The notes below the pieces were generated by a model. The model saw only the letters and a list, made by a program, of their open reading frames with translations. It had not been told where the DNA came from and made no database searches. From Escherichia coli (GTDB taxonomy: Bacteria; Pseudomonadota; Gammaproteobacteria; Enterobacterales; Enterobacteriaceae), in assembly GCF_011045215.1 (NCBI RefSeq), contig NZ_CP049201.1: a stretch of 64,000 bases of DNA. The stretch is one strand, 5' to 3'. The translations under genes and the position numbers were made by a program. This document shows positions 2,173 to 35,600 of this stretch, piece after piece. Each line of letters opens with the position of its first letter. Position 1 is the stretch's first letter.

Positions 2173-3441
2173 TTATTGATTAAATACGGCGTGTAAGGCA
2201 TCCACACTACGTGCCGCTCGCAGCGTGCGTCCGGGGTTACTCTGGCTTGCCAACAGCGTTTGTACCTTGCTGACAATATGCGCACCAATAGGAATTGCTG
2301 ATGTCGCTGCCGGGGAGGGCGCATTGCAGGTGTGGATCGTGCGCGGGGTGGTGACAAACAGAAAATCGTCAATCAGCTTGCCGTCCGGCGATACCGCCTG
2401 CGCCCGCACACCGGCGGGCCAGGGCTGGAGATCGCTTAACGAAAGCCGGGGACAATACTTTTGCACCAGCCGCAGATAGCCGCTTTTGCACAGCGAGTTT
2501 TTCATCTCGCCCAGTCCTGAGCGTAGATGGTTTTGCAGCACCCGGCGAATCCCCGACGAGCCTAAAATCTCCAGCGTGTCGCTAAATGAGAAGTCGCGCT
2601 TGCGATAGCCTTCGCGTTTGAACGCCAGCACTGCGTTTGGCCCAACGGTGACGCTACCGTCGATCATGCGGGTGAGATGAACGCCCAAAAACGGCATTGC
2701 CGGATCGGGAATGGGGTAAATCAGATGGTTAACAATCTGGTTATGCTCCGGCGCCAGGCGGAAATACTCGCCGCGGAACGGGCAGATAATAAAGCCCGGT
2801 TCGAGGCCGAGCATTTTCACCAGCCGGTCAGCCATCAGCCCGGAACAGCTAATCAGCGTCGATGCTTCATAGTCGCCGCCCTGACGGGTACGTATCACCA
2901 CGCCGCTTTTATGCTCACTAAGGCCGCTGACTTCGGCGTTATAGATAATCTCGCCGCCTCTGGCCTGGAAAATTTTTGCCATCGCCGCCGTTACTTCGCG
3001 GTAGCTGACAATGCCGCTGGACGGCACAAAAATACCGCCAAGCCCGGTGATATTCGGTTCGCGCTCGCGCAGTTCATCGGCGTTTAACCACTCGCGCTCG
3101 ATACCGTTTGCCGCCGTGCGTTCCCACAACGCGCGCATCCGTTCCATTTCGAGTTCAGAGGTGGCGACCAGCATCTTGCCGCAGTTGTCGTAGCGAATGC
3201 CGTTTTGATCGCAAAAGGCTTTGGTGGCGCGGTTTCCCGCCAGGCAAAACTGCGCCTTCAGACTGCCGGGCGTGTAATAAACCCCGGCATGGATCACGCC
3301 GCTGTTGTGGCCCGTCTGGTGACAGGCCGGGCCGGACTCTTTTTCCAGCAACGCAATGCGGGCGTCCGGGTAGACATCAATCAGTTGCATGGCGGTCGAC
3401 ATGCCGATGATGCCGCCGCCAATAATCACAAAATCATACAT
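2173..3441 (-). CDS. lhgO: L-2-hydroxyglutarate oxidase/dehydrogenase LhgO (YgaF)
   Basis: ORF 2173-3507; likely true start at MYDFVIIGGGIIG (FAD-binding GxGxxG) giving ~422 aa; between csiD and gabD. Confidence 0.9.
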   Translation of the reverse strand: MYDFVIIGGGIIGMSTAMQLIDVYPDARIALLEKESGPACHQTGHNSGVIHAGVYYTPGSLKAQFCLAGNRATKAFCDQNGIRYDNCGKMLVATSELEMERMRALWERTAANGIEREWLNADELREREPNITGLGGIFVPSSGIVSYREVTAAMAKIFQARGGEIIYNAEVSGLSEHKSGVVIRTRQGGDYEASTLISCSGLMADRLVKMLGLEPGFIICPFRGEYFRLAPEHNQIVNHLIYPIPDPAMPFLGVHLTRMIDGSVTVGPNAVLAFKREGYRKRDFSFSDTLEILGSSGIRRVLQNHLRSGLGEMKNSLCKSGYLRLVQKYCPRLSLSDLQPWPAGVRAQAVSPDGKLIDDFLFVTTPRTIHTCNAPSPAATSAIPIGAHIVSKVQTLLASQSNPGRTLRAARSVDALHAVFNQ

Positions 3442-3460
3442 CCGCTCAATTCCTTTGCGC

Positions 3461-4775: not shown

Positions 4776-7028
4776 TTACAAATAGAGATAGTTCAGCGGT
4801 TCTCCTGTTCTCCCTAAAAGAAGAGCGCTACGCCCAGGAATATTGATATTTAGAGTTCCGCCTCTAAGCATAAATGCTTTACCAGGGGGGATACTTTTGC
4901 GTGTATTATTAATAATAATGTTAACGCTATTACTCCCCATGTTTTTATATTTTCCAGGTTGCAATTTGTTAGGCCAGGCACCTTCAACTTCTTCGTTTCC
5001 TTTATTTATTATAACTAGTCCATCATGAGGAGAGTGATTAATGTTCACAGAATCCCCACGACTAAAGGCCAGAACGTTTTTAGTTGCAAATACACCCTCA
5101 AATGCGCTCCATATTCCTGCTTTATCTATATATAATGCGTGGAATTCATTGTAGAGCTGCTGATAGGTAGAGCAACCTTTATTAAGCCACGCCTCACCGC
5201 CGACACGCGTCGACCCATCATAATTTTTAATTTCAGTCGTTGATTTTAATACTTGGCCATCCCAGTAAACTAAAGGCCTGCTGAACGGGAGAGCGGCCAT
5301 ATATGCCATTGCTAATTGTTCATCTTGTTGATGGTTAAATAGAAAATCATTGAAAAGATTGCCATTGTTAGGAAAATCATGGTTAATGTTAATCAATATC
5401 CGTCTTTTTGATGGGATGCTTGAGATTGTGGAACCCGGTTTTGATGCAAGGGTTTGGAGATCGCCACCAAATGAAAAAGCTTTTATCGTCTTCATGAGCA
5501 ATGAAAAATCAATGGCGCTTAAATCATCTCTTTCATAAAGCAGCGATGACATTTGTTCTTCATCCAACTGACAAGTTACCAGATATTCCATGTAATTCAT
5601 GACGGCTTTTTCATGATATTTTGGGTTAAATAAGTTAGTATTGTGTAATCGCTCATTATAATTTTTAAGCGGTGGGGTTATTGATCTTTCTATTTGTTCA
5701 TGTTTTGAGTGTTTTGCTGCATCGTAACGTAAACCTCGTACGCCATATTTTCGCATTTCACGAACGTATTGATTTTGCAGCATAATAACCTGGTCACTTT
5801 TGGGGGTTGTTTTAGGCATTCCATTTAAACGCTTTTCTTTTAATGCATGGAGGTTTTCCCATTCATCCTTAGAAATATTATCTTTACTAGCTTCGAAGTC
5901 TTTTGCAGTGAGATGTATATCTTCTGGATGGATTTGTTTACGTTCTTTTGTTACTGGATCGATAATAAATGGAATCAAAACCTGACCTTGCCAATAGCCA
6001 GGGATACCACCTTCTATATCTTTACTGATCTTCGCTCGTATATCAGCAGAGGGATAATCCAGGTCATTTTTACCACTACCCCCGATTCCCATAAAGTTAA
6101 AAGTATAATCAGGAATGATATCGATACCAAATTTTTTAGCATCTTTAACCAATGCGATAAAATCCTGCAAATCTCCCATTGGATTGTGGATGGTACAAAG
6201 ATCTTCGGGTTGATAAGCGTGAAACCAGTAACCTTTTTCTTCTTCGGGAGTTTCTGGTCCGTCGGCACGGAAAGTTGTCACTGGAGGGATTTGTATATAC
6301 CCATAATGGCAACGTGCAAATTCAGACATATTTTCTCTGATCTGCTGGTAGGTGGCATTAAAAGCATGAAGAATCGCTTCGCCAGGTTTTTTGGGGGTGA
6401 TGATTTCACATTGTGATTTCTGAACAGCAGTAAGAGATTTACGCTCAAGTGTTTGCCGTAGATGTTCTGGATTGATTAGTATTTTAAATGTTTCTTGCTG
6501 TCCGGAAGGTGACGTCACGTTAATATTATATACATCGGCTGCCAGCTCATAGTCAGGAATGTTAATAGCATATGCAACATATTTATCTTTTGGGGAGGGT
6601 TTGTCAGATATAATGTGGGTGAAATGTTCAGCAGGACCATACTGGTGAACCCCCTTATTATATTCTCTTTAATTCATTGTATCTCTTTGATAAATCCATG
6701 TTTTTCCTTCTCCTATCCTGTCTGGCGCTGTAATACTACGCTGTGCAGCTTTATTCAGTTCACGGTAAGTTGTATCTGGAAAAAGGGAAATTTTATAATC
6801 GTTTTTTAACAGATCATTAATGATTTTTTCTGCGTGAAAAGTTGATATAATTTCTCTGTCTTTTAAATCCTGAGGATAAACTCCACAAGCATTAATAATA
6901 TTTGTTACACAGTTTAGATATTCTAATGTATTTAATTTGGAATTTAGATCCCCGTCAGTAATGTTCCATGATAACAATGTGGGGTTGTCGATAGGTAAAT
7001 TTCTTGGTCCTGGTTTTATAGAAAACAT
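4776..7028 (-). pseudogene. ygaQ: ygaQ-like alpha-amylase-family gene split by an in-frame TAA (ORFs 6669-7028 and 4776-6518)
   Basis: The 119-aa and 580-aa ORFs are in the same frame, separated only by TAA at 6669-6671 (minus strand) and 50 sense codons; GLRYDAAKH motif resembles alpha-amylase region II (GFRxDAAKH). Confidence 0.6.
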
Positions 7029-7587: not shown

Positions 7588-7663
7588 GGCCCTTTAGCTC
7601 AGTGGTTAGAGCAGGCGACTCATAATCGCTTAGTCGCTGGTTCAAGTCCAGCAGGGGCCACCA
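7588..7663 (+). tRNA. ileY: tRNA-Ile (anticodon CAU, lysidine-type; ileY/ileX-like)
   Basis: 76-nt sequence GGCCCTTTAGCTCAGTGGTTAGAGCAGGCGACTCATAATCGC...GGGGCCACCA with CAU in the anticodon loop and encoded CCA end; recognised as the E. coli minor tRNA-Ile. Confidence 0.93.
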
Positions 7664-8414: not shown

Positions 8415-9764
8415 ATGTTAATTAATAAAAGCAACGGATTTAACGCTAGCGCAGTTTTGGGTAGTGGAAGTTATAATGAAAATAAATCTTCTAAACACAT
8501 GGAGCTACTAGCTCATAGTATTGTAAAATTAATTTGTAAGGAAGCTGCATCAGAGACGTATCGCGGTGCTCTTGAAACTTTACAAAAAATGATGTCTGAA
8601 TGTAAATATAAAGAAGGCAACGCCTTTGTCATTATGGGAGCTGGAGGACAATTAAAACGTATTAAATATGATGTTGATGAAAATAAATTAAAAATATTCA
8701 ACATATACTTTGATAATAATTACGAGGTAGTTACTGATGGTGAGCCTGACGTAGTATTTTTAAGCAAGCAGGAGTGGGAAAATCTTCTCATTAAATTAAA
8801 ACCGGAGATTAAAGAAAATGTGTTTTCTGAAAATAACAAATTATCGAGAGAAAATAATTTTGATCAGTATGTTCAATCCGCTAAAAGAAATGAACAGACC
8901 CTTTTCGATAATATAAGAAAAAGTGATTTTCATGTTGGTTCACTTAAGCCAGGTAGTATGAATAATGTTATTTTAGAAATGCCACCAAATGTCTGTATGG
9001 AATCACGTAATTCATATGAAAACCAAATAGATGAGATTTCATCTTTGTCAGAGTCAAAGGAACACCCCATAGATATTCAAGAAAAAACAGATGCGTTTGT
9101 GAATGAGTTCAGGGGGATATTATTTGATCAAAATGGAAGGTCTTCAGAGTTTCTACTTAATTTTTATGAATGTTGCTATGTGTTTTTACCAAGAGCGCAG
9201 CCTCAGGATAAAATCGAAAGCTATAATTCAGCACTGCAAGCTTTTTCCATCTTTTGTTCATCTACGTTGACACATAATAATATAGGCTTTGATTTCAAAT
9301 TATTTCCAGAAGTCAAGCTGTCTGGAGAACATCTTGAAACGGTATTCAAATACAAAAATGGCGATGATGTCCGGGAGATAGCCAAAATTAACATTACTCT
9401 CCAAAAAGAAGAGGGTGGCTTATATAATCTACGTGGATTGGATTTTAAGGGATGCTTCTTTTCTGGACAGAACTTCAGTAACTATGATATTCAATATGTG
9501 AACTGGGGAACGTCATTGTTTGATGTTGATACTCCGTGTATTTTTAATACGCCTGCTAACCATGAGAGTTATGAAAAATCATTAAAACCTGTAAGCGAAA
9601 ACGGTTTAAATGGAGTCTTATCTGATCGTAATAAAAAAATAAAAATGATCACGGGTGTGGCGCCATTCGATGATATTTTATTTATGGATGATGACTTTGA
9701 TGATAACTCCCCTGAGGATGCTCCCATTGAGAATAGTCCTGTTGTGAATAGTCCCCTTGTATGA
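8415..9764 (+). CDS. Pentapeptide-repeat-containing protein (ypjB/ypjC-region gene; EspX-like effector family possible)
   Basis: 449-aa AT-rich ORF; C-terminal stretch LRGLDFKGCFFSGQNFSNYDIQYVNWGTSLFDVD fits a pentapeptide-repeat pattern; acidic C-terminal tail. Confidence 0.55.
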   Translation: MLINKSNGFNASAVLGSGSYNENKSSKHMELLAHSIVKLICKEAASETYRGALETLQKMMSECKYKEGNAFVIMGAGGQLKRIKYDVDENKLKIFNIYFDNNYEVVTDGEPDVVFLSKQEWENLLIKLKPEIKENVFSENNKLSRENNFDQYVQSAKRNEQTLFDNIRKSDFHVGSLKPGSMNNVILEMPPNVCMESRNSYENQIDEISSLSESKEHPIDIQEKTDAFVNEFRGILFDQNGRSSEFLLNFYECCYVFLPRAQPQDKIESYNSALQAFSIFCSSTLTHNNIGFDFKLFPEVKLSGEHLETVFKYKNGDDVREIAKINITLQKEEGGLYNLRGLDFKGCFFSGQNFSNYDIQYVNWGTSLFDVDTPCIFNTPANHESYEKSLKPVSENGLNGVLSDRNKKIKMITGVAPFDDILFMDDDFDDNSPEDAPIENSPVVNSPLV

Positions 9765-10390: not shown

Positions 10391-10699
10391 AAACGATTAT
10401 GTAAATCATTTTATTTTGCCAACGGCCTCATTGTCGAAAGAAAAGAATACGCCCGTGTTTCCTGAATAGATTGACTTTTTTATCCAACCACACTTCAGCG
10501 CACTGCGTTTAAAAAATGCCTCATTCTTATGCGGAATATCATCATTTCATCATGATGTCTTTGATGAGCGGTGAACACAATACACTTGCGCTGTCTCTTC
10601 AGGATGAATCCCCTGGTCTGGTGCCTGTGGGCTGATGTTGCAGCAAAGCTAAGGTCGCTTAAACGCTACTCAGTATTCACTTTTCAGAGGATGAAATTT

Positions 10700-13600
10700 A
10701 TGAACAGGACCAGTCCCTATTATTTTCGCCGCTCAGTACTTTCCTTATTGATATCTGCCTTAATATATGCCCAGCCTGGAGAGGCTGCTTTCACATCAAT
10801 CGTTACTGGTATCGTAAATGGTGAAACTGTTGATGGTGATCAAATAGTAGATGAACGTGGTACAACTAATGATATTCATATCATTAATCACGGCCGCCAG
10901 ACTGTAATTGGTGGGATGTCTAATGGAAGTATTATTGAAGTTGGTGGACAACAAGATGTAGCAAGCCATAATGATTATCAGGGGCAAGCTAATAATACAA
11001 TCCTTCATGGGGGTGCACAGGTAATTTATAATGGCGGGAATTCTACCGGTACGATAATCGAGAGTGGTCATCAGCAAGTTTATAACGGTGGTACCAGCAA
11101 TGGCACGATAATCGAGAGTGGCAATCAGTACGTTTATAAAGATGGTACCAGCAATGGCACGATAATTAAGAATGGTAATTCAGTCGTCGAAGGAGGGAGG
11201 GCGAACGGGACTGTCATCGATGGTGGTAAACAAACAGTAACAACTCAGGGATATGTTGACGGTACGACGATAAATAAGTCCGGTTATCAGGACATCATGC
11301 AAGGAAGTCAGGCAAAGAATACGACAATAGATGGGGGGCGGCAGTATGTGGACTCGAGTTTTGTAGAAACCACCATCATCAAAAATGGGGGCGATCAAAG
11401 AGCATATAAGAGCCATGCGCTGAACACTACGATAGATGGAGGTCGACAGTATATTGATTCAAGTACTGCACAAATAACCACCATTAAAAATGGAGGAACG
11501 CAACAATTAATTGCCAGCCAGGCTATGATCACCTCGATTGAAGGGGGAATGCAGACGCTGGAAAGTTCGTCAATGGCGTACAATACCACGATCTATTCTG
11601 GCGGGAAGCAAATTGTTGATAACACCAGCACCTCGGATGTTATTGAAGTTTATTCCGGTGGCGTGCTTGATGTTAGTGGTGGTACGGCAACAAATGTTAC
11701 CCAGCACGATGGTGCAATTTTAAAAACAAACACTAACGGTACGACGGTGAGCGGTACGAATAGTGAAGGTGCATTCTCCATCCACAATCACGTGGCAGAC
11801 AATGTGTTGCTGGAAAACGGTGGTCATTTAGACATAAACGCATATGGTTCGGCAAACAAGACGATTATTAAAGATAAAGGAACAATGTCAGTTTTAACCA
11901 ATGCTAAAGCTGATGCGACCCGAATAGATAATGGCGGGGTTATGGATGTTGCCGGAAACGCGACCAATACCATAATTAATGGTGGTACACAGAATATTAA
12001 TAATCATGGTATTGCCACGGGCACTAATATCAACAGTGGAACGCAAAATATCAAGAGCGGCGGGAAAGCTGACACGACAAATATATCCTCCGGGAGCCGG
12101 CAGATTGTTGAGAAAGATGGTACGGCAACTGGCAGCAATATTAGCGCTGGAGGCTCGCTGATTGTCTATACCGGCGGTATTGCACATGGGGTTAACCAGG
12201 AGACGGGCAGTGCTTTAGTTGCCAACACGGGTGCAGGGACTGATATCGAAGGATACAACAAGCTCTCTCACTTCACTATTACCGGAGGGGAGGCTAATTA
12301 TGTTGTGCTGGAAAATACCGGCGAACTGACGGTAGTGGCTAAAACCTCGGCGAAAAATACTACCATTGATGCTGGCGGTAAGCTGATTGTCCAGAAGGAG
12401 GCTAAAACAGATAGCACCAGACTTAATAATGGCGGCGTTCTGGAGGTTCAGGACGGTGGTGAGGCTAAGCATGTTGAGCAACAATCCGGCGGCGCATTAA
12501 TTGCTTCCACGACCTCCGGAACACTTATCGAAGGAACCAACAGTTATGGTGATGCTTTCTACATCAGGAATTCAGAAGCTAAAAATGTAGTGCTGGAAAA
12601 CGCTGGCTCATTAACCGTCGTCACTGGTTCCCGGGCAGTTGACACGATTATTAATGCCAACGGCAAAATGGATGTTTATGGAAAAGATGTTGGCACTGTA
12701 CTCAATAGTGCTGGCACCCAAACAATATATGCCAGTGCCACTTCTGATAAAGCAAATATCAAAGGTGGCAAGCAAACGGTATATGGTTTAGCCACTGAAG
12801 CAAATATCGAAAGTGGTGAACAAATTGTTGATGGTGGGTCAACAGAGAAAACACACATCAATGGTGGCACGCAAACCGTTCAGAATTATGGTAAGGCAAT
12901 CAATACCGATATCGTCTCTGGCCTACAACAAATTATGGCAAACGGGACAGCGGAAGGTTCCATTATTAATGGGGGTTCACAGGTAGTTAATGAGGGCGGT
13001 CTGGCTGAAAACTCGGTGCTTAATGACGGCGGCACACTCGATGTGCGGGAGAAAGGCAGCGCAACGGGGATACAGCAGAGTAGCCAGGGCGCTTTGGTTG
13101 CAACCACCAGGGCGACGCGGGTCACAGGAACACGCGCGGATGGCGTCGCGTTCAGCATCGAGCAGGGTGCGGCGAACAATATCCTGCTGGCAAATGGCTG
13201 CGTGTTAACCGTGGAGTCAGACACCACTTCCGCCAAAACACAGGTCAATACGGGCGGGCAGGAGATCGTCAAAACAAAAGCCACTGCGACAGGCACGACG
13301 CTCACCGGCGGCGAACAAATCGTCGAGGGTGTGGCGAATGAGACAACGATTAACGACGGTGGAATACAAACAGTTTCGGCTAACGGAGAGGCAATAAAAA
13401 CAACGATCAATGAAGGCGGTACGCTGACAGTTAACGATAATGGCAAAGCAACAGATATCGTCCAGAACAGCGGTGCCGCTCTCCAGACGAGCACGGCTAA
13501 CGGTATTGAAATCAGCGGTACTCACCAGTACGGCACTTTTTCCATTTCCGGCAATTTAGCGACCAATGCGTTGCTGGAAAATGGCGGTAATTTATTGGTA

Positions 13601-15433
13601 TTAGCAGGCACCGAAGCTCGCGACTCCACGGTTGGCAAGGGTGGTGCAATGCAAAACCTGGGTCAGGACTCCGCCACAAAGGTTAACTCTGGCGGGCAAT
13701 ATACCCTTGGGCGGTCAAAAGATGAGTTTCAGCCTCTGGCCCGGGCAGAAGATCTCCAGGTCGCTGGCGGGACGGCAATCGTCTACGCAGGTACGCTGGC
13801 GGATGCATCGGTCAGTGGCGCGACAGGAAGCCTGTCGTTAATGACGCCACGGGATAATGTTACGCCAGTTAAACTCGAAGGGGCGGTCCGGATTACCGAT
13901 AGCGCGACATTAACTCTGGGAAATGGCGTCGATACAACGCTTGCCGACCTGACGGCTGCCAGCCGGGGCAGTGTCTGGCTTAACAGCAATAATTCCTGTG
14001 CAGGTACCAGCAACTGCGAATATAGAGTAAACAGTTTGCTACTCAACGACGGTGATGTTTATTTATCAGCACAAACAGCAGCGCCTGCCACAACTAACGG
14101 TATCTACAATACGCTGACAACCAATGAACTTTCCGGTAGCGGTAATTTCTACCTGCATACCAACGTTGCAGGCTCCCGGGGCGATCAACTGGTCGTCAAC
14201 AACAACGCCACTGGTAATTTTAAAATCTTTGTTCAGGATACCGGCGTCAGCCCACAGTCTGACGATGCGATGACGCTGGTGAAAACAGGGGGAGGGGATG
14301 CTTCGTTTACGCTGGGCAATACCGGCGGTTTCGTTGATCTTGGGACCTATGAGTATGTCCTGAAAAGTGACGGCAACAGCAACTGGAACCTGACCAATGA
14401 TGTCAAACCCAACCCGGATCCCAACCCAAATCCGAAGCCAGATCCAAAACCAGACCCAAAACCGGATCCGAAACCAGACCCGACTCCCGATCCAACGCCG
14501 ACACCCGTTCCGGAGAAACGCATCACGCCTTCTACGGCAGCCGTACTCAATATGGCTGCAACATTACCGTTGGTATTTGATGCTGAGCTAAACAGTATTC
14601 GCGAGCGGTTGAACATAATGAAAGCGAGTCCACACAACAATAATGTCTGGGGGGCGACGTATAACACCCGTAATAATGTCACCACCGATGCGGGTGCCGG
14701 GTTTGAGCAGACGCTGACCGGAATGACAGTGGGGATCGACAGCCGTAATGATATTCCTGAAGGAATTGCCACGCTGGGCGCTTTTATGGGTTATTCCCAT
14801 TCACATATCGGTTTTGATCGCGGAGGACATGGCAGTGTGGGCAGTTATTCTCTGGGCGGCTATGCCAGTTGGGAACATGAAAGTGGTTTCTATCTGGACG
14901 GTGTCGTGAAGCTGAACCGTTTTGAAAGTAACGTAGCCGGTAAAATGAGCAGCGGTGGAGCCGCCAATGGCAGTTACCACAGCAACGGGCTGGGCGGTCA
15001 CATTGAAACCGGGATGCGATTTACCGATGGTAACTGGAACCTGACGCCGTATGCATCGTTAACGGGGTTCACCGCTGATAACCCCGAATATCATTTATCC
15101 AATGGCATGAAATCGAAATCAGTCGATACCCGCAGTATATATCGTGAACTGGGGGCAACGCTGAGTTACAACATGCGTCTGGGGAACGGTATGGAAGTTG
15201 AGCCGTGGCTGAAGGCGGCTGTGCGCAAAGAATTTGTCGATGATAACCGGGTGAAGGTGAATAATGACGGTAATTTCGTCAATGATTTGTCGGGCAGACG
15301 TGGAATATACCAGGCAGGTATTAAAGCCTCATTCAGCAGTACGTTAAGCGGGCATCTCGGGGTGGGGTATAGCAACGGTGCCGGTGTGGAATCCCCGTGG
15401 AACGCGGTGGCTGGTGTGAACTGGTCGTTCTGA
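10700..15433 (+). CDS. ypjA: AIDA-I-type adhesin-like autotransporter (ypjA-like)
   Basis: ORF 10571-15433; probable start ATG 10700 (MNRTSPYYFRRSVLSLLISALIYAQPGEA signal peptide); passenger built of ~19-aa imperfect repeats (NGTIIESG.QQVYNGG...), PNPDPNPNPKPDPKPDP linker, C-terminal beta-barrel ending ...AGVNWSF. Confidence 0.85.
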   Translation: MNRTSPYYFRRSVLSLLISALIYAQPGEAAFTSIVTGIVNGETVDGDQIVDERGTTNDIHIINHGRQTVIGGMSNGSIIEVGGQQDVASHNDYQGQANNTILHGGAQVIYNGGNSTGTIIESGHQQVYNGGTSNGTIIESGNQYVYKDGTSNGTIIKNGNSVVEGGRANGTVIDGGKQTVTTQGYVDGTTINKSGYQDIMQGSQAKNTTIDGGRQYVDSSFVETTIIKNGGDQRAYKSHALNTTIDGGRQYIDSSTAQITTIKNGGTQQLIASQAMITSIEGGMQTLESSSMAYNTTIYSGGKQIVDNTSTSDVIEVYSGGVLDVSGGTATNVTQHDGAILKTNTNGTTVSGTNSEGAFSIHNHVADNVLLENGGHLDINAYGSANKTIIKDKGTMSVLTNAKADATRIDNGGVMDVAGNATNTIINGGTQNINNHGIATGTNINSGTQNIKSGGKADTTNISSGSRQIVEKDGTATGSNISAGGSLIVYTGGIAHGVNQETGSALVANTGAGTDIEGYNKLSHFTITGGEANYVVLENTGELTVVAKTSAKNTTIDAGGKLIVQKEAKTDSTRLNNGGVLEVQDGGEAKHVEQQSGGALIASTTSGTLIEGTNSYGDAFYIRNSEAKNVVLENAGSLTVVTGSRAVDTIINANGKMDVYGKDVGTVLNSAGTQTIYASATSDKANIKGGKQTVYGLATEANIESGEQIVDGGSTEKTHINGGTQTVQNYGKAINTDIVSGLQQIMANGTAEGSIINGGSQVVNEGGLAENSVLNDGGTLDVREKGSATGIQQSSQGALVATTRATRVTGTRADGVAFSIEQGAANNILLANGCVLTVESDTTSAKTQVNTGGQEIVKTKATATGTTLTGGEQIVEGVANETTINDGGIQTVSANGEAIKTTINEGGTLTVNDNGKATDIVQNSGAALQTSTANGIEISGTHQYGTFSISGNLATNALLENGGNLLVLAGTEARDSTVGKGGAMQNLGQDSATKVNSGGQYTLGRSKDEFQPLARAEDLQVAGGTAIVYAGTLADASVSGATGSLSLMTPRDNVTPVKLEGAVRITDSATLTLGNGVDTTLADLTAASRGSVWLNSNNSCAGTSNCEYRVNSLLLNDGDVYLSAQTAAPATTNGIYNTLTTNELSGSGNFYLHTNVAGSRGDQLVVNNNATGNFKIFVQDTGVSPQSDDAMTLVKTGGGDASFTLGNTGGFVDLGTYEYVLKSDGNSNWNLTNDVKPNPDPNPNPKPDPKPDPKPDPKPDPTPDPTPTPVPEKRITPSTAAVLNMAATLPLVFDAELNSIRERLNIMKASPHNNNVWGATYNTRNNVTTDAGAGFEQTLTGMTVGIDSRNDIPEGIATLGAFMGYSHSHIGFDRGGHGSVGSYSLGGYASWEHESGFYLDGVVKLNRFESNVAGKMSSGGAANGSYHSNGLGGHIETGMRFTDGNWNLTPYASLTGFTADNPEYHLSNGMKSKSVDTRSIYRELGATLSYNMRLGNGMEVEPWLKAAVRKEFVDDNRVKVNNDGNFVNDLSGRRGIYQAGIKASFSSTLSGHLGVGYSNGAGVESPWNAVAGVNWSF

Positions 15434-15443
15434 CCATCAACGA

Positions 15444-15466
15444 AAAAGCCCACATCTGTGGGCTTT
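15444..15466 (+). terminator. Hairpin after ypjA (AAAAAGCCCACATCTGTGGGCTTT)
   Basis: Perfect stem GCCCACA/TGTGGGC immediately 3' of the ypjA stop codon; weak U-tract. Confidence 0.5.
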
Positions 15467-16111
15467 CATGTTACCAGGAGCCGCGGCTCCTTTGCGTATC
15501 CTTTTATGTCTCCTCACCGTCTGGTCGGTGTCCTGCTGAGACTTCTAACTTCCTGTTTTTGTTGGTGTTGTTTTTACACCTTCCAATCATGATTGGTGCT
15601 GGCGTCCCTGTGCTTTTAATTATAGTGTATTGATATTTAATATTTTTGTTTAAATTAATTTCGTTATGGGTTCCAAAAAGGAACCATAAAGTAGAACCAC
15701 AGAACCTCGCATGGTTCCAACATGCCTAGCGACTTCAAAATAACACGCTCTATGGCAAACTAAATGTAAGTGTGGCTGGATATTTAGCGTCTGATTACTG
15801 AGAGGGTCAATAAAAACTGCTCTATCTCAAATACTGTAGTGGCCCATAAACTTGTCCGCTTGAGTCGATGGTGTACCTCGTCCGTTCAGGCCCGGAGTGG
15901 CTAATTAGCAGAGTATTCATGTCTGCTATGAGCGAGGATCGGACGTAAAACAACTGTAAAAAACTATTTAACTCAGGCAGAAATGTCAAGATTCAGTGAA
16001 AATGTCTAATCACTGGTTCGTTAGAAATGCCCATATGTTGAAAAGGCTGCTGCAAAAAAGTCTCTCGCAGCGGCCTCTTTAATATAACGTCATTGTGTGC
16101 ATCATCTTTAA

Positions 16112-17464
16112 TTATGGGTTTAACTCAAACTGTTCCCCGTTTATTAATTTTCGCAATAAGTCAAGTGCCTCAGATGAGTATTTTCCGACACCACTTTTCC
16201 CAGATTTAATGAAAACATGATAATTGTTGTCTGATGCTTTAATGTTGAAGTCGGTTAGTTTTCTTAATTTTTCGAATTCTTGATTAACATAGTGCCACGA
16301 TCCCATGTCGAGAATCCTTGCCAGATCAGACATTGTATATGGGAAACTAGCATTTAGTGCCTGCCCATTATTGAGTTCAGCGATACCATACATTTTTGCT
16401 AATGCATCATCATGCTCTGCAATATTGCGGAACATCTCAAAATCGTATGGAAGTTCTTGTTTAACAAGGGATTCTGATGCGAATGTGTACGTTCTGGCTA
16501 GAAATGCACGCACAAGTTTTGGATTAACGCTAATTTCCGGTGTATTAGATGATAACGCATCAAAAATCCAACCAAAATTATTTGCGTATATCACCTTGAT
16601 TCGAACGCTTTTATTCTCACCAACACCGATTAGCAATTCCTTTTGATGAGAACCAGTGGCCTCGCAGTCCTTACTGAAGGAGACAAGATAAATATTTGGA
16701 ATCAATGCATTATTGGGAGCGATGATTTCATCTATATCAGAGAGAATTGCCTTTATGTTTTCATCATTGATACTGTACCCAAAGAAAAACAAGGGGTGTT
16801 CAGCAAAATATGTTAGCAACTTAGCACTGATATATTTCTTACGTTTATAGAAATCAACATAATCTTCATTTGTAATAACAATACTTTCAACTTCATGACT
16901 GCTACCATGAATTTTCATGATTTCGCCATAAGATGAATAATTCACTTTAACAACGTTATGACCAACTATTGCCTGATAATTGTCAAATATTTTTTCTAAT
17001 GTGTCGTCATAATTTGTTGTGATTATTGCATGAGGTTTTACTTTCCTTAATTTCTGAACTTCCTCTGTATATTCCATGTTCGAGAAATCAACGGAGTTTG
17101 ATAATTCATTCAGAATGGATGCAATTTCATGCTTAATATAAATATCTTTTGGAGTCGTTCCTTCAAAGTATGTCTCTGGATAGCGATCCTTGCCATCATC
17201 CCAAGCCCATTCAGCATAGAAGTCACAAAAATCGCTAGCAATCAAAGGTTTGTTATCACCCTTTGTTTGGCTGTAGTAACCATAAGGGCGTTTGATCAAG
17301 GGGCATATTTCCGCTAGTTGCTTTAATAGACCTTCCCAGTCAGGCGCTTTTATATATCGTTGTGAAATACCTGCACCCATGAATAAAATGGGTTGGACTT
17401 GTAAGTTTTCAAGGCAAGATTTAACATCTTCGATTATTTCTTCTTGATATTCCGTAAAGTCCAT
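16112..17464 (-). CDS. Stand-alone SIR2-family (ThsA-type SIR2_2-like) protein with unknown C-terminal domain; candidate NAD+-depleting anti-phage effector
   Basis: 450-aa AT-rich ORF; sirtuin-like motifs ILFMGAGIS (GAGxS), ITTNYD, KIHGSSHE (HG) and FFFGYSINDENI line up with ThsA SIR2-domain motifs as I recall them; no partner gene within ~0.7-0.9 kb. Confidence 0.7.
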   Translation of the reverse strand: MDFTEYQEEIIEDVKSCLENLQVQPILFMGAGISQRYIKAPDWEGLLKQLAEICPLIKRPYGYYSQTKGDNKPLIASDFCDFYAEWAWDDGKDRYPETYFEGTTPKDIYIKHEIASILNELSNSVDFSNMEYTEEVQKLRKVKPHAIITTNYDDTLEKIFDNYQAIVGHNVVKVNYSSYGEIMKIHGSSHEVESIVITNEDYVDFYKRKKYISAKLLTYFAEHPLFFFGYSINDENIKAILSDIDEIIAPNNALIPNIYLVSFSKDCEATGSHQKELLIGVGENKSVRIKVIYANNFGWIFDALSSNTPEISVNPKLVRAFLARTYTFASESLVKQELPYDFEMFRNIAEHDDALAKMYGIAELNNGQALNASFPYTMSDLARILDMGSWHYVNQEFEKLRKLTDFNIKASDNNYHVFIKSGKSGVGKYSSEALDLLRKLINGEQFELNP

Positions 17465-21079: not shown

Positions 21080-21286
21080 ATGAACAATCAAAATACCCGC
21101 CTAATTCGCTTGCCAGAAGTTATGAACAGAACCGGCTATGGCAAGGCCTGGATTTATCGTCTAATCAACGAAGGTTTATTTCCACAACCAATAAAAATTG
21201 GTTCGCGTGCAATTGCATTTGTCGAAAGCGAAGTAGATGAATGGATCGCATCTGCAATTGAACGTTCACGTAAAAATGCAGCCTGA
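21080..21286 (+). CDS. alpA: AlpA-family (prophage regulatory / excisionase-like) DNA-binding protein
   Basis: ORF 21047-21286; start ATG 21080 preceded by AAGGGA; sequence LIRLPEVMNRTGYGKAWIYRLINEGLFPQPIKIGSRAIAFVESEVDEWI matches the AlpA/MerR-like HTH pattern. Confidence 0.7.
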   Translation: MNNQNTRLIRLPEVMNRTGYGKAWIYRLINEGLFPQPIKIGSRAIAFVESEVDEWIASAIERSRKNAA

Positions 21287-22314: not shown

Positions 22315-22878
22315 TTAAAAGGGAATGCCGTCAGTTGGATATCTGTTTCTGGATTTTTTTACAGGCTTTGTTTTGCGCCCTGCGCGATAAAAGTTGAATG
22401 AAGTGGCAAAATCTTCAGTCTCAAGTCTGGATTTACTGAATTTATCCATCAGATCTTCATTGAAACGATGAGGAATACCTTTTACGCATAAATTAGAATT
22501 CAGGTAAACCTGACCGTCTTCAGCGTTACGGATCAGTATTTTCCTCTCAAATAATTCTCTGAATGCACGTGAAACATTCGATTTATTCAGTCCTAACTCT
22601 CTGGCAGTACGTGACTGTGAAAAGTCAGGGATAATATTTCCATAATCAATGACTGAGAAAAGATAAAGAACAATTCTGAATGCCGTTGGTGTCAGATCCA
22701 TTCGGGCGAGTGTGGCCGTATTATCTTTAAAGACCATCGAAAAATCGTCACGAAAGGATGTCTTTTTACAGGCACTTGCTTTAACTTTTATTTCTTCCAG
22801 ATCTTCGGGCATAACATCTAATGCTTCTGCAATGATTGCTTTTTGTTCTTTAGTTAACATAACACTTGTGTTTGACAT
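22315..22878 (-). CDS. Winged-HTH protein, replication-initiator-like or regulator
   Basis: 187-aa ORF with probable HTH (TARELGLNKSNVSRAFRELFERKIL); lies next to a direct/inverted-repeat-rich noncoding region (23.3-23.7 kb). Confidence 0.55.
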   Translation of the reverse strand: MSNTSVMLTKEQKAIIAEALDVMPEDLEEIKVKASACKKTSFRDDFSMVFKDNTATLARMDLTPTAFRIVLYLFSVIDYGNIIPDFSQSRTARELGLNKSNVSRAFRELFERKILIRNAEDGQVYLNSNLCVKGIPHRFNEDLMDKFSKSRLETEDFATSFNFYRAGRKTKPVKKSRNRYPTDGIPF

Positions 22879-24923: not shown

Positions 24924-26489
24924 TCAGTGGTAGTAGCCAGGACCACGCAGGTTTTCATGCTCTGAAGCATATGCCGGATGTTGTTCGCCCTGGCGGGATA
25001 ACGGAAGCTCAACGTTATCCCGATGATGACGCAGCAGATTGTCGATAAAGCGTCTGTCCGGGGCGTTATAGTGCAGGGCAACGTAACAGGCCTTTTCCAG
25101 CCGTTCCGGGCCGTATTTTTTCTGAAGTGCCAGCAGACCCAGGACTGCACGGTAAGCCAGCTCCGGATGGGGTTTGGCTTTCAGCATGGATTCAACCACC
25201 CGGCCTGTGGACGGACCTGTACGGTTTCCCTGCTCGATAAGGCGTTCCGGTGTCCATGTCCCATGCCGCCGGTGGCGTTCTGGCATGTGAAGCGGATTGG
25301 TTGTGTGTTTATATTCATGTGTGCTGCGCGGATGTTGCGCCACACACTGCCCCTTGTGCCAGAGCTGTACCACCGACTGCCCCACCTTCAGTGACAGACG
25401 CTGACCGACCAGTTCGTGTGGAACGGAGTACCAGTGACGGGCATATTCAACGTGGTAGTCAGGGCCAACCTTCACGGCTTTGTATTCCGTGTATTCATAA
25501 GGCTCCAGAGGCAGCGGAGAGAGTGCTGGTGCATCCAGCATGCGGAAGCGTTCTGCGCGGGTTTGATTACCGTATCCCTTCATTGGTCGGTTATTCATGT
25601 CCGTCAGCAACTCCCGAAGGCGTGCATTCAGCGCCCTGAGCGTGTGGAAGGTTTCATTACGGATGCGGGCAAGAAGCCATCGCTCGACGATGAGGACGCC
25701 GTTTTCTGCTTTTGGTTTATCTTTAGGTTTGCGCGGGCGGGCCGGGATAATAACCGTGCCATAGTGCTCAGCCAGCGCCTGATAACTGTCGTTGATGACA
25801 GGCTCATAGCGATCGGCTTTTTTCACTGCGCTTCTGAGGTTATCGGGGATGAGCAGCTTCGGTACGCCGCCCAGGAAGGTCAGGCAACGGCTGTGGGCAT
25901 TTAACCATGACATCATGTCCTGACCTTCGCACGCTTCAACATAGGTATAGTTGGACGCCCCCATTACAGCCACGAAGATTGCCACGCGGCGTATCTCTCC
26001 GGTGTCCGGATTAATAACAGGGACCGTAGGACCACAGAAGTCGATAAAGAGCTTTTCGCCAGCACGATGCTCCTGTCGCATGGAGAGGCGTCGCGTTTTT
26101 TTCCACTTCCGGTAGCAACGGCAGAAGTGTGAGTATCCCATCGCTTTGTCACCCGCCTGTGCCTTGTATTCCATCCACAACAGTTGGCGCGTCACGCCAG
26201 GTTTTCTCATTTCCGTATCGAAGTACAGCATGTCAGGCATAACAAGCTCTGACGCAGAGGTGTCTTTGGGCGGGAAAATGAGTTTCTCCAGCGTGTCATG
26301 GGATATATCAGCAGGTAATGGCCATGACAGAGAAGAGGCTTTGAAGCGGGCAAGAACCTCAAAAACGGTTGAGGCGCTGATGTGTAACGTCAGTCCGATA
26401 CAACGGTTAGTCAGCTTCTTATCGAACTTGAGCTGAAGGATCTTAAAACAAGTTTCCATAGTGCTCCTGGATTTTCTCTTTTTGGACAT
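24924..26489 (-). CDS. istA: IS21-family transposase IstA
   Basis: ORF 24924-26591; likely start MSKKRKS (26489); N-terminal HTH followed by integrase-like catalytic core; paired with istB. Confidence 0.8.
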   Translation of the reverse strand: MSKKRKSRSTMETCFKILQLKFDKKLTNRCIGLTLHISASTVFEVLARFKASSLSWPLPADISHDTLEKLIFPPKDTSASELVMPDMLYFDTEMRKPGVTRQLLWMEYKAQAGDKAMGYSHFCRCYRKWKKTRRLSMRQEHRAGEKLFIDFCGPTVPVINPDTGEIRRVAIFVAVMGASNYTYVEACEGQDMMSWLNAHSRCLTFLGGVPKLLIPDNLRSAVKKADRYEPVINDSYQALAEHYGTVIIPARPRKPKDKPKAENGVLIVERWLLARIRNETFHTLRALNARLRELLTDMNNRPMKGYGNQTRAERFRMLDAPALSPLPLEPYEYTEYKAVKVGPDYHVEYARHWYSVPHELVGQRLSLKVGQSVVQLWHKGQCVAQHPRSTHEYKHTTNPLHMPERHRRHGTWTPERLIEQGNRTGPSTGRVVESMLKAKPHPELAYRAVLGLLALQKKYGPERLEKACYVALHYNAPDRRFIDNLLRHHRDNVELPLSRQGEQHPAYASEHENLRGPGYYH

Positions 26490-26625
26490 TGACGTCTCCA
26501 CTGGTTTAAACACGGCAATGGAGACTGTGGTGAAAAGAGTTAATTCCCGGAGTGACTGGCGAATTCCAATCAATGATCGGAAGTATGCCAAATCGTGATC
26601 GATTGTGATGCCAACATATCCTTAC

Positions 26626-28100
26626 CCATAAATCCGAGTGATGTTATTCTGTTGATAAATTAACCATAATTTAGAGGAACTATGGAAAACTGGGTTATTA
26701 AGGAGCTGGAATCTCTGAATGTTGGTGATATCAGGCTCGAAAAGCGAATAAAGCACGTTCTCAGTGTGCTTAGCCGTTCACCAAAGGAAAGTATTCCCGT
26801 ATCCTGCCGTACCTGGAGTGAGACAAAAGCTGCTTATCGTTGCTTTTCCAGTGATAAAATTTCAGCCGATAAAATCATGGCTCCCCATAAGAAAAATATC
26901 ATCGAAAGGACTAAACAGTTTAAACGGGCTCTGGTTTTACAGGATACGACTGAACTAAATTATTCTGGTCAAAAAAAGAAACAGGGCGTCGGTCCCAGAC
27001 GACATGAAAATGAGCGAGATTTGTTTATTCACCCTCAATTGGTTATAAGTGATTCAGGTATTTGCTTAGGGGTTTATGATGATTATCAATGGTTCAGAAA
27101 AGAACTCAAAACTCAGAAACAAAGTCGTAAAGAAATAACTAATGATTCACTTCACAGGAAACATATCAGTGAGAAAGAAACAGGACGGTGGATAGAAGGA
27201 TATAAAAAAGCAACAGAACTGGCTAGGTCCTGTCCTGATACCCAGATAATTTCTGTTTCAGACCGTGAAGGTGATATTTACGACCTCTTTGAGAGTGCAG
27301 AAAATGAAAGTGGGATAAAGGCTGACTGGCTCGTAAGAATGAAGAGCATTAACCGGGCTATACTGAATTCATCAGGAAAAAGAGACTCATTACTCCTGAA
27401 TGAAAAAATGATGCAGATTTTGCCACAGCAGATAATTGAGTTTACCCTTCCGGAAGGACGAGGACAACCTTCCCGCAAAGTCCAGCAGGAGCTACGCTTA
27501 GCAAGGTTGACGCTACATCCACCCACCGGTCGAAGAGGAAAGTTACGTTGTTCTCCGGTAACGGTAACTGTATTACTTGCAAAGGAAATAAATGCTCCAG
27601 AAAGTGTCCAGCCATTAGTATGGTGGCTAATGAGTAGTGTACCTCCAGAAAAGCTGACGGAACCCGCACAGCTTATTCAATGGTATTTATTACGCTGGCA
27701 GATTGAAGTTTTCTTTAAGGTATTAAAAAGCGGATGTCAGGTTGAGAAATTACAACTTGAGACATTTGAACGCACAAGGAACTGTCTGGCCTTATACCTT
27801 ATAATCTCATGGAGAATACTTTATCTTAGCTCATTGTATAAAATGGTTCCGGAGGAACCCTGTGATTTAATTTTCGAAAAGAAAGAATATGAGTATCTCT
27901 GGATATTGGTAGAGAATACGCCTCCACCTGAAAACATACCGAATATAAGAACGGCGGTTTTAATGCTTGCAAGATTAGGAGGATATCTGGCAAGAAAAAA
28001 TGATTCGCCTCCAGGCCCTAAGACTATATGGTCAGGATTAACACAATTAATGCTGTCAATTAATGCCATAGAAATAGCCCAGAAAACTTGTGGGTAAGGG
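26626..28100 (+). mobile_element. IS4-family insertion sequence nested in the IS21-family left end
   Basis: Single transposase ORF flanked by imperfect terminal inverted repeats (CCTTACCCATAA... / ...TTGTGGGTAAGG); both flanks carry IS21-type repeat motifs; boundaries approximate. Confidence 0.6.
26682..28097 (+). CDS. IS4-family DDE transposase
   Basis: 471-aa ORF containing the IS4 Y-x2-R-x3-E-x6-K signature (YLLRWQIEVFFKVLK). Confidence 0.85.
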   Translation: MENWVIKELESLNVGDIRLEKRIKHVLSVLSRSPKESIPVSCRTWSETKAAYRCFSSDKISADKIMAPHKKNIIERTKQFKRALVLQDTTELNYSGQKKKQGVGPRRHENERDLFIHPQLVISDSGICLGVYDDYQWFRKELKTQKQSRKEITNDSLHRKHISEKETGRWIEGYKKATELARSCPDTQIISVSDREGDIYDLFESAENESGIKADWLVRMKSINRAILNSSGKRDSLLLNEKMMQILPQQIIEFTLPEGRGQPSRKVQQELRLARLTLHPPTGRRGKLRCSPVTVTVLLAKEINAPESVQPLVWWLMSSVPPEKLTEPAQLIQWYLLRWQIEVFFKVLKSGCQVEKLQLETFERTRNCLALYLIISWRILYLSSLYKMVPEEPCDLIFEKKEYEYLWILVENTPPPENIPNIRTAVLMLARLGGYLARKNDSPPGPKTIWSGLTQLMLSINAIEIAQKTCG

Positions 28101-35555: not shown

Positions 35556-35600
35556 GTTGGGACCATTACCAAATAGTTTATATGCTAAAAATTTAGGGAA

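Follow-up and report, generated by a model that had tools for sequence, protein, structure and literature searches.

A conserved GGTTCC/GGAACC dyad in the integrase-distal att arm of an ssrA-inserted defense island of Escherichia coli: candidate arm-type integrase sites

RESULTS

An island of about 32.6 kb (positions 15605-48203) is inserted at the 3' end of ssrA in the window, the 64,000-nt stretch of Escherichia coli DNA analyzed here. The tmRNA gene itself was placed at 48204-48566 on the minus strand by a Rfam tmRNA match (295.8 bits) and by junction alignment. Adjoining it is the gene for a P4-family tyrosine integrase of 409 aa (46808-48037, minus strand), in which the Pfam domains Arm-DNA-bind_3 (E = 5.6e-23), Phage_int_M, and Phage_integrase were recognized, and which shares 35% identity with P4 Int and 48% with K-12 IntA. 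The element is a mobilizable defense island, a separate ssrA island rather than CP4-57 itself. Among its other genes are those for a 68-aa AlpA-family protein (21080-21286, plus strand; Pfam Phage_AlpA, E = 2.3e-20), which is a candidate excisionase or recombination directionality factor of the island, a 187-aa helix-turn-helix (HTH) protein (22315-22878; one of several HTH genes), a relaxase (29821-31050), a NikA-like gene (31047-31451), and a large serine recombinase (44969-46525).

The integrase-distal att core copy, TTGGTG^CTGGCG, was located at 15593-15604 by aligning the empty site with the distal and ssrA junctions. It is an imperfect repeat, with a 3-bp deletion, of the ssrA 3' end TTGGTGGAGCTGGCG; the integrase-proximal copy is the ssrA 3' end itself, which reads TGGTGGAGCTGGCG on the plus strand at 48204-48217 in the junction alignment. 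GCTGGCG (15598-15604) is the invariant part of the core and the likely crossover region. In the sampled E. coli genomes with an empty site, the sequence corresponding to 15434-15598 lies directly against the ssrA 3' end, which means that the island begins at about 15605 and that the motif cluster described below lies 61-119 bp inside it. The autotransporter gene ypjA is thus chromosomal flank and not island cargo.

The cluster occupies the non-coding gap between two convergent genes, ypjA (end at 15433) and a SIR2 gene (end at 16112), in agreement with the earlier sequence-only reading, which had drawn attention to several GGTTCC/GGAACC motifs lying within 60 bp in this gap. It consists of ATGGGTTCCAAAAAGGAACCAT (15666-15687), GAACC copies at 15694 and 15702, and ATGGTTCCAACAT (15711-15723). 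Five GAACC/GGTTC pentamers fall within 60 bp, where their density over the window would predict 0.09, and no other 60-bp stretch of the 64 kb is as dense in them. The dyad GGTTCC-N5-GGAACC (15669-15685), allowing at most one mismatch, occurs only once in the window, where 0.03 occurrences would be expected. Its description as a perfect hairpin was too generous, as the stem is perfect over only 6 bp (GGTTCC/GGAACC) and reaches 10 bp only if a G at 15668 is bulged out. The proposal that the cluster is a recombination site marking the island junction was partly right: the cluster belongs to the att region but is neither the junction nor the crossover. The junction lies at 15593-15604, and 64 bp separate the dyad from the GCTGGCG core on its left. 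The cluster itself lies within the island, at the integrase-distal end, as an accessory element of the arm.

A genome-wide search of 5,426 E. coli genomes found the cluster region in 57, at a single place in each, which disposes of the concern that the motif might be a REP-like repeat scattered through the genome. Across 100,044 species genomes, nine stretches contain the exact 18-mer; three of them come from homologous island ends in enterobacteria, and the six non-enterobacterial matches are close to chance level (approximately nine expected in 298 Gb by our estimate). A search for an excised or plasmid-borne attP among PLSDB plasmids and INPHARED phages returned no match to the distal arm.

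The distal (attR) arm could be divided into blocks by their conservation among relatives, including 12 arm representatives (metagenomic loci and E. coli arms less than 85% identical to one another). The first island-specific bases, TCCCTGT (15605-15611, plus strand), are kept next to the core in all 12 representatives and in A3 and are possibly part of a core-type integrase site. Halfway between core and dyad, the block TTGATATTTAA (15630-15640) is kept as the pattern 'ttgat.TTtaa' in an anchored stack of the 12 diverged arms and may mark the position of a bending protein, as a candidate IHF-like half-site; the full IHF consensus WATCARNNNNTTR has no match in either arm, only this conserved TTGAT.TTTAA block being present. 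The left half of the dyad, ATGGGTTCCAAAAA (site 1, 15666-15679, plus strand), is a proposed arm-type integrase site that is invariant in 85%-identical relatives and retains GGTTCY in the diverged arm of strain 7784. The right half, GGAACCATAAA (site 2, 15680-15690), follows 11 bp after site 1, a spacing conserved among relatives, and can be read on both strands, giving ATGGTTCC on the minus strand; its GGAACC(A/T)TAAA is invariant in all relatives, strain 7784 included. The two GAACC copies in GAACCACAGAACC (15694-15706, plus strand) are lineage-specific, with TAACCTCAGCACG or TAACTACAGCACG in their place in relatives, and are probably degenerate or non-functional sites. Site 3, ATGGTTCCAACAT (15711-15723, plus strand), is a proposed third arm-type site under looser constraint, appearing across relatives as GGTTCT, GGTCCT, or GGCTCC and being unalignable in strain 7784. 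The last conserved block (TTCAAAATAACA...) lies at 15734-15748 in alignments of relatives, and BLAST matches to H68-H70 stop at query position 150, equivalent to window position 15748. Homology with sister islands carrying other cargo stops at this position, which sets the inner boundary of the roughly 150-bp attR arm.

Conservation across diverged relatives was limited to the dyad and, under looser constraint, the third site ATGGTTC. Arms with an overall identity of about 85% all share an unchanged 19-bp stretch, TGGGTTCCAAAAAGGAACC. In strain 7784, whose arm is otherwise unalignable, GGTTCTATAAAGGAACCATAAA is kept at an equal distance from the core, and the alignment needs just a 1-nt gap for the core-dyad spacing. 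A metagenome scan with GGTTCYAWAAAGGAACCWTAAA recovered 46 loci, all of which carry a GCTGGCG-type core 63-65 bp upstream (exact in 44), while the flanks of the dyad fall into several diverged families.

The integrase-proximal arm carries the repeats ATGGCACCCTGAA, ATGGGACCCACGA, TGGGTCCTAAAAT, and AGGGTCCCAAACA (48037-48092, minus strand, towards int), which are kept in 873.10, 99COLEC, and the phi467 record. The latter, a 'phage' record, contains an adjacent island integrase with an att repeat and no continuous attP. The motifs of this arm, ATGGCACCC, ATGGGACCCA, ATGGGTCCTAAAA, and GAGGGTCCCAAAC, run up to the int ATG. The last repeat ends at the ATG and also holds the likely Shine-Dalgarno sequence, and because of this overlap with a likely ribosome-binding site its conservation may have another cause.

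The motifs of the two arms are similar, not identical, being GGTTCC (GGTTCCA) in the distal arm and GGGTCC/GGGACC (GGGTCCY/GGGACCC) in the proximal arm. A matrix built from the proximal arm only, in an alignment register chosen with both arms already seen, placed the distal-arm positions 15667 (site 1) and 15711 (site 3) at ranks 5 and 8 of approximately 128,000 positions, that is, second and fifth among the matches outside the training set. Between the arms, 29 near-matching 10-mers were counted, a number reached by none of 300 mononucleotide shuffles; in P4, used as a positive control, the corresponding number was 36, reached by 8 of 300 shuffles. The best single 10-mer or 12-mer match between the arms was by itself not significant against mononucleotide shuffles. 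When a matrix of the CP4-57 type was run over the window, the proximal arm emerged as the densest cluster, but the distal GGTTCC cluster was not ranked, which counts against direct motif identity between the island families.

DISCUSSION

The location of the cluster in an island end, its fixed spacing from the att core, its conservation against diverged flanks, the presence of related motifs in both arms, and a layout of the P4/CP4-57 type are all directly observed. We consider it probable, from the sequence comparisons, that the cluster represents arm-type integrase-binding sites of attR, the accessory arm of the approximately 32.6-kb ssrA island. The dyad at 15669-15685 would most likely provide arm-type sites for the N-terminal domain of the island integrase, and ATGGTTCC at 15711 is probably a further site of this kind. 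The integrase indeed possesses an N-terminal arm-DNA-binding domain, and its gene adjoins the att core; integrase N-domains are known from the literature to bind arm-type sites. We infer that this domain rather than AlpA is the binder and that the sites are required for recombination. According to the proposed mechanism, integrase bound to the dyad would bridge to the GCTGGCG core over the intervening 64 bp, an A/T-rich and presumably bent spacer, and this bridging would build the intasome needed for excision (attL x attR) and, once the island is circular, for integration (attP x attB). The related sites upstream of the int ATG would constitute the other arm, where integrase may repress its own promoter. 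The resemblance to a hairpin would in that case simply follow from the adjacency of two sites whose GGWWCC core is quasi-palindromic.

A point counting against this reading is the geometry: the distal pairs in other family members are direct repeats spaced 12 bp apart, whereas the pair here is a dyad at 11 bp, which would suit a dimeric protein too. The dyad could be viewed as a site for the AlpA-family directionality factor, or as a composite of integrase and AlpA sites, at which attR would be bent toward excision while the sites at the int promoter would give AlpA control; we regard this as unlikely. An AlpA-family gene is present in the window and is kept beside the dyad in every relative examined. 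The island remnant in strain 7784 has retained this gene and lost the P4-type integrase next to ssrA, a co-retention that simple proximity explains, as alpA and the dyad are about 1.2 kb apart. The island protein shares its family with P4 Vis and K-12 AlpA, and an 11-bp-spaced dyad would suit a dimer. Directionality factors do bind att arms: RdfS binds attP as well as attL upstream of intS, whose transcription it stimulates (PMC11963761), and a regulatory role of AlpA toward the CP4-57 integrase has been described (PMC9376610). Since AlpA is reported to activate intA, motifs common to the int promoter and attR could be AlpA sites. However, such factors usually act on head-to-tail repeats in one arm only, whereas the motifs here occur in several copies on both arms; moreover, the P4 annotation gives arm repeats at the homologous positions, and direct binding of Int near the start of P4 int has been reported. 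The two proteins have diverged in parallel, with AlpA sharing 34% identity with its K-12 counterpart and 71% with that of strain 7784, and Int sharing 48% with K-12, so that covariation favors neither of them as the binder. Papers on Shewanella CP4So, GIsul2, and Pf4 give no binding-site sequences for AlpA/Vis or IntA. Less probable still is that GGTTCY-N5-GGAACC is a dedicated site of a dimeric island factor (AlpA or a different conserved backbone protein, for example DUF6387) common to diverged families of ssrA islands. As ssrA islands accumulate in tandem, the proteins of one island might use such a common arm site to excise or mobilize neighboring islands, and, if true, this would imply cross-talk or hijacking between tandem islands.

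A regulatory operator, as suggested by the sequence-only reading, might be bound by another dimeric island regulator, such as the 187-aa HTH protein (22315-22878), and might control transcription at the island end; the conserved dyad symmetry of GGTTCC-N5-GGAACC and the several HTH genes of the island would agree with this. Nevertheless, the site is surrounded by convergent gene ends with no gene start nearby, and a promoter scan of 15400-16150 found no sigma-70-like promoter, making such a role very unlikely. Furthermore, the core distance is fixed in all 46 metagenomic loci while the neighboring cargo differs, which ties the site to att and not to a gene. An RNA hairpin at the island end, serving either as a terminator or within a small RNA, was also raised previously and gains some credit from the folding of a 31-nt hairpin (-9.8 kcal/mol on the plus strand and -10.3 kcal/mol on the minus strand; z-scores of -3.0 and -4.5) and from a weak terminator-like pattern on the minus strand at 15719-15692. 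Yet the stem of 6-10 bp (about -10 kcal/mol) is not followed by a U-tract on either strand, and the 76-nt region folds no better than its shuffles (z of about -1.8 to -1.9). A terminator scan of 15400-15799 returned two terminator-like sites, the dyad not among them, and a Rfam scan of the whole window at gathering thresholds found only tmRNA and one tRNA, with nothing at the cluster. Both neighboring genes have structures of their own, a strong terminator-like GC hairpin with a T-run for ypjA (approximately 15447-15471) and another hairpin for the SIR2 gene (approximately 16034-16078). In strain 7784 the stem is imperfect (GGTTCT/GGAACC) and the loop is conserved, a pattern unexpected of a simple RNA stem, so that an RNA function appears highly improbable. 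The palindromic sequence, together with the relaxase and the large serine recombinase encoded by the island, might finally bring to mind a REP-like dispersed repeat, a chance cluster, an oriT, or a serine recombinase site, the most improbable group of all. The single location per genome in the 57 carriers and the lone occurrence of the dyad in the window speak against a repeat or chance. An oriT was rejected because 14 kb separate the dyad from the relaxase and the NikA-like gene and because the strain 7784 remnant, in which no relaxase is annotated, still has the dyad; a serine recombinase site was rejected because 99COLEC has the dyad but no serine recombinase gene between hsdM and int.

Under the preferred reading of arm-type integrase sites, the feature is of a kind ordinary for such elements and reveals no new mechanism, and the importance of the result is modest. 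It establishes the true boundary of a defense-gene island of E. coli C-like strains and identifies its functional end, an attR arm of roughly 150 bp (15598-15748). It also offers a candidate consensus, approximately GG[T/G]YCYA(A/T)A, arranged as adjacent pairs with 11-12 bp spacing at about 60-100 bp from GCTGGCG, which would describe the accessory sites of ssrA-targeting P4-family integrases, K-12 CP4-57 included; in the literature searched, we found no published definition of these sites. Such sites could be used to delimit islands, to predict the excision ability of degraded islands, and to build mini-islands.

Several characterized recombination systems provide a framework for this interpretation. 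The P-arm of lambda attP, with its P1 and P2 sites and its IHF and Xis sites, resembles the arm described here in being served by a heterobivalent integrase with arm sites on both arms, in its A/T-rich spacer between core and arm sites, and in its arm length of about 150 bp (PMC2951348). It differs in that the integrase subfamily and the motif are unrelated and the int promoter does not lie inside the att arm. In KplE1 (IntS/TorI) and ICEMlSymR7A (IntS/RdfS), by comparison, the att arm overlaps the int promoter, leading to integrase autoregulation; each has several arm-type motifs, and the int-proximal arm of att is bound by the directionality factor (PMC2951348, PMC11963761). The P4-family IntS of ICEMlSymR7A has five arm-type motifs, all of which are required (PMC11963761). 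Its motif is TGKTGGTATC, and both of these elements target tRNA genes and have experimentally tested sites, whereas the sites reported here were derived from sequence.

The closest parallels are found in P4 and the CP4-57 group. The integrase of P4 has the domain architecture found here, at the identity of 35% given above, and its AlpA-family partner is Vis. P4 targets the 3' end of a tRNA gene, and both P4 and this island therefore insert at the 3' end of a small RNA gene, although the target here is ssrA and the element is a 32-kb mobilizable defense island rather than a satellite phage. The P4 record (NC_001609) annotates 12-mers as 'attP arm sequence repeat', of which an adjacent pair lies 53 bp beyond the core in the integrase-distal arm; the other arm has a second annotated pair and, at the int start, an inverted copy. 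Both elements thus have a distal pair of roughly 12-bp repeats some 55-85 bp past the core and additional proximal copies that reach the int start. The P4 motif is TTGGGGGCAT, compared with GGTTCC/GGGTCC in this island, and the distal pair of P4 is a direct repeat with 12-bp spacing instead of a dyad with 11-bp spacing. CP4-57 and the CP4-57-like ssrA islands share the target at the ssrA 3' end, the flank on the ypjA side, and the GCTGGCG core. Their distal arm has a repeat pair at 75-105 bp from the core, and three copies precede the intA ATG, but their motif, TTAGGCCCA or TTGGTCCYA, is arranged in direct repeats, unlike here. CP4-57 also differs in its cargo, its AlpA is only 34% identical, and its arm sequence is otherwise unrelated. 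In K-12, CP4-57 has an adjacent pair at the corresponding place, with a motif of its own. The second island of 873.10 has a similar layout and again its own motif, TTAGGCCCAACGATAGGCCCAATT in the distal arm and TTAGGCCCATTGATAGGCCCAACG in the proximal arm. Taken together, P4, CP4-57, and the second island of 873.10 match the present island in layout, each combining an adjacent pair in the distal arm with proximal copies that extend to the start of int.

Results

The GGTTCC/GGAACC cluster downstream of ypjA was found where the sequence-only reading had placed it, with the sequence described there. Its left part, TTATGGGTTCCAAAAAGGAACCATAA (15664-15689), contains the dyad GGTTCC-N5-GGAACC (15669-15685), GAACC copies at 15694 and 15702 occupy the middle, and a third site, ATGGTTCCAACAT, is at 15711-15723. 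Within 60 bp there are five GAACC/GGTTC pentamers, where their density in the window predicts 0.09; no other 60-bp stretch of the 64 kb has as many, and the dyad, with up to one mismatch allowed, occurs once in the window against 0.03 expected. The cluster is real and non-random. Calling the dyad a perfect hairpin overstated it: the perfect stem is 6 bp, and 10 bp is reached only with a bulged G at 15668. A second palindrome, GGTTCC-N3-GGAACC (27845-27859), falls inside the Tn5-like gene and seems to be there by chance.

Of 5426 E. coli genomes, 57 carry the 232-bp island end, each as a single copy; E. coli C is one of the 57, and none of the copies is on a plasmid. Across 100,044 species genomes the exact 18-mer turned up in just 9 stretches. 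Those in Citrobacter, Phytobacter and Kluyvera are homologous island ends; the other six are about the number expected by chance by our own estimate. The distal arm (the attR side, near ypjA) had no match in PLSDB plasmids or the phage collection. A common REP-like repeat, scattered and devoid of positional meaning, which the sequence-only reading had named as what would refute it, was ruled out by the single copy per genome and the rarity of the 18-mer.

When the 678-base ypjA-SIR2 gap was searched by BLAST in 5426 complete E. coli genomes, 4162 gave a match but only 35 covered most of the gap; matches mostly ended near query position 165-178. The next annotated feature in sampled matches ending at position 165 was ssrA, and in the empty-site strain AR216.2b the downstream flank of ypjA joins the tmRNA 3' end directly. 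Three-way alignment gave the att core, the crossover repeat of the ssrA 3' end, as TTGGTGGAGCTGGCG; its integrase-distal copy (15593-15604) has a 3-bp deletion and keeps GCTGGCG (15598-15604). Because the ypjA flank adjoins ssrA in empty sites and the cores align, ~15605-48203 is an inserted island. On one side ypjA (10571-15433, + strand) is followed by the gap and then by island genes, and on the other stand the P4-type integrase (46808-48037, - strand) and ssrA (48204-48566, - strand); a tRNA gene lies at 7588-7660. The cluster is 61-119 bp inside the integrase-distal island end.

The island cargo includes a SIR2-like gene, ankyrin-repeat genes and a type I restriction system, and the island also encodes a MobA/VirD2-type relaxase, a 68-aa AlpA-family protein (21080-21286), transposase insertions and a large serine recombinase. 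The serine recombinase gene (Resolvase and Recombinase domains; 44969-46525, - strand) and two 298-aa ORFs (43190-44979, - strand) stand between the type I restriction genes and the tyrosine integrase; 99COLEC lacks the recombinase gene at the equivalent position, and the region may be a separate small mobile insertion. Relative to strain 81, the island backbone is split by a Mu-like transposase (rve and Mu-transpos_C_2; 24924-26591, - strand) and a Tn5/IS4-like transposase (26682-28097, + strand). A perfect IHF-consensus match, TATCAATAAGTTG (35547-35567), overlaps an arm-like motif (TTGGGACCATTA / ATGGTCCCAAC) directly upstream of a type I R-subunit gene truncated to 681 aa, where strain 81 has an ORF of ~1079 aa. 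Another att arm may have left this match behind, or it could be the junction of an internal rearrangement. Citrobacter sp. R56 (locus L009, 4128-4270) carries an Rfam isrN small-RNA match (144.7 bits) ~1 kb from its island end; no isrN equivalent was detected in the window.

Sister arms in E. coli 873.10, E. coli 99COLEC and Phytobacter are ~85% identical to the window's arm. All three keep TGGGTTCCAAAAAGGAACC invariant and retain CATGGT, and the middle GAACCACAGAACC is not conserved, being TAACCTCAGCACG there. Homology with these islands, whose cargo differs, ends at 15748, which marks the inner edge of a ~150-bp arm. The arm of strain 7784 (O157-like context, same DUF6387 and AlpA backbone) is much more diverged and otherwise unalignable, yet keeps GCTGGCGTCCCTGT and, at equal distance, GGTTCTATAAAGGAACCATAAA. 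In a metagenome collection scanned with the pattern GGTTCYAWAAAGGAACCWTAAA, each of the 46 loci returned carried a GCTGGCG-type core upstream of the dyad at a distance of 63-65 bp; 44 of these cores were exact and the other two had one substitution. Since the core was absent from the search pattern, this constant distance independently supports the dyad as a positional part of the att site. These loci and the E. coli arms reduced to 12 representatives less than 85% identical to each other. A TTGAT.TTTAA block (15630-15640), midway between core and dyad, is conserved in all 12 diverged families and is a candidate bending-protein site; it contains no full IHF consensus.

The integrase-distal core differs from ssrA TGGTGGAGCTGGCG by a small deletion that varies from strain to strain: 3 bp in the window, 1 bp in 873.10 and K-12, and larger in 99COLEC, strain 7784 and Citrobacter, with GCTGGCG intact in every distal core compared (comparison loci L002, ~5995-6010; L003; L017, strain 7784, ~1660-1670; L004, K-12, 22573-22586, psaA). 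Strain 7784-type and related arm families (L017, ~1840-1856; L028, L036, L047, L053) carry CAGTTCAACTCCC or TTGGTTCAACTTCC ~75-90 nt after the dyad; these resemble the ssrA T-arm segment GGTTCAACTCCCGCC and may be what remains of a second, older att site, unless the likeness is coincidental. At 15835-15850, ~235 bp from the core and outside the conserved 150-bp arm, GTGGCCCATAAA (ATGGGCCAC on the other strand) is rated highly by the arm-site matrices and is similar to the CP4-57-type motif TAGGCCCAT.

The proximal arm (the attL side, between ssrA and the int ATG) begins at the ssrA 3' end with an island-supplied terminator hairpin, followed towards int by ATGGCACCCTGA, ATGGGACCCACGA, ATGGGTCCTAAAAT and GAGGGTCCCAAAC. 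The fourth repeat extends into the int ATG, and the set is also conserved in 873.10, 99COLEC and the phi467 record. A weight matrix built from the proximal sites alone and scanned over both strands of the 64-kb window ranked TGGGTTCCAAAAA (15667) 5th, or 2nd among non-training sites, and ATGGTTCCAACAT (15711) 8th, or 5th among non-training sites. An alignment-free count gave 29 near-identical 10-mers between the arms, reached in 0 of 300 shuffles that kept mononucleotide composition only; the same count in the P4 positive control was 36, reached in 8 of 300. The best single cross-arm match was not significant alone against mononucleotide-composition shuffles. With a matrix from CP4-57-type sites alone, the window's proximal arm was the densest cluster in the window and the GGTTCC sites were not picked up, so the proximal motif class is shared more clearly than the distal one by both island families.

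Discussion

With its position, comparative pattern and architecture observed directly, the cluster very probably serves as an accessory protein-binding part of the att arm, and integrase arm-type sites are its likely, if less assured, identity; the binding protein and the need for the sites in recombination are what we infer here. The serious alternative is that AlpA binds the dyad, which we consider rather improbable: AlpA is encoded in every relative examined and reportedly controls intA, and a dyadic site fits a dimeric protein, but related motifs recur in several copies on both arms and the P4 precedent favors the integrase. Covariation does not separate the two proteins because both diverge in parallel. 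An operator for another regulator, which the sequence-only reading had offered, is unlikely given the convergent gene ends and the lack of any promoter-like site. Its proposal of a terminator or small RNA region is likewise not supported: no U-tract follows the stem (about -10 kcal/mol), shuffled sequences fold as well as the 76-nt region, Rfam gives no match, and strain 7784 conserves the loop with an imperfect stem. Readings as an oriT or a serine-recombinase site failed direct checks. The third option of the sequence-only reading, a recombination site marking the island junction, came nearest, in that the cluster is an att arm element, but it is not the junction itself.

Under the integrase reading, the dyad, and probably the third site, would be arm-type sites of attR to which the island integrase binds through its N-terminal domain. 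With their catalytic domain the same molecules would engage the core, 64 bp distant, over an A/T-rich spacer that a host protein probably bends. Directionality would be set by AlpA, and the proximal repeats would play the same role in attL while also repressing int. Integrase N-domains bind arm-type sites in intasome assembly, att arms overlapping the int promoter give negative autoregulation, and P4 Int autoregulates via direct DNA binding near the int start (PMC2951348); in ICEMlSymR7A, none of the five arm-type motifs is dispensable for the P4-family IntS (PMC11963761). The cluster is nothing out of the ordinary for a P4-family att site; its main uses are in setting the limits of the island and in giving ssrA-targeting integrases a site definition that can be tested.

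Islands stand in tandem at ssrA, with a partial ssrA 3'-end repeat between each. In 873.10 (L005, 1-50000) the order is window-type island, CP4-57-like island, P2-like prophage; in Phytobacter (L011, ~3380-3460) and Kluyvera (L013, ~8960-9040) a window-type distal arm adjoins a CP4-57-type integrase-proximal arm, in reversed order. The phi467 "phage" record (L007, 32800-33000) takes in a neighboring island integrase. In K-12 CP4-57 (L004, 22490-22520 versus 690-760), the ypjA-side repeats TTGGTCCCA and TTGGTCCTAAAAG resemble the window island's proximal site ATGGGTCCTAAAA and are unlike its own intA-proximal TAGGCCCA, so this island may have a chimeric or partly mismatched arm pair.

The P4 record lists six 12-bp "attP arm sequence repeats", (T/A)(T/G)GGGGGCA(T/C)A(T/A), of which two lie side by side on the distal arm, 53 bp past the core. 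The other arm also has an adjacent pair, along with an inverted copy that overlaps the start of int, and the sixth repeat is within the int gene. P4 Int has the same three domains as the window integrase (35% identical), and P4 Vis belongs to the AlpA family, as does the window's 68-aa protein. K-12 CP4-57, whose IntA is 48% identical to the window integrase, has the pair TTGGTCCCATTG and TTGGTCCTAAAAG on its ypjA-side arm, at ~80-105 bp from the core; ahead of the intA ATG it has TTAGGCCCATTG and ATAGGCCCAACG together with a copy in inverted orientation. The CP4-57-like island of 873.10 has nearly the same pair on both arms (TTAGGCCCAACGATAGGCCCAATT versus TTAGGCCCATTGATAGGCCCAACG). The layout is thus common to the family: on the distal arm, two adjacent sites spaced 11-12 bp apart lie 55-105 bp from the core, and on the proximal arm several copies extend up to the int start. 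The motif itself differs by lineage (GGGGGC, GGCCC, GGTCC and GGTTCC).
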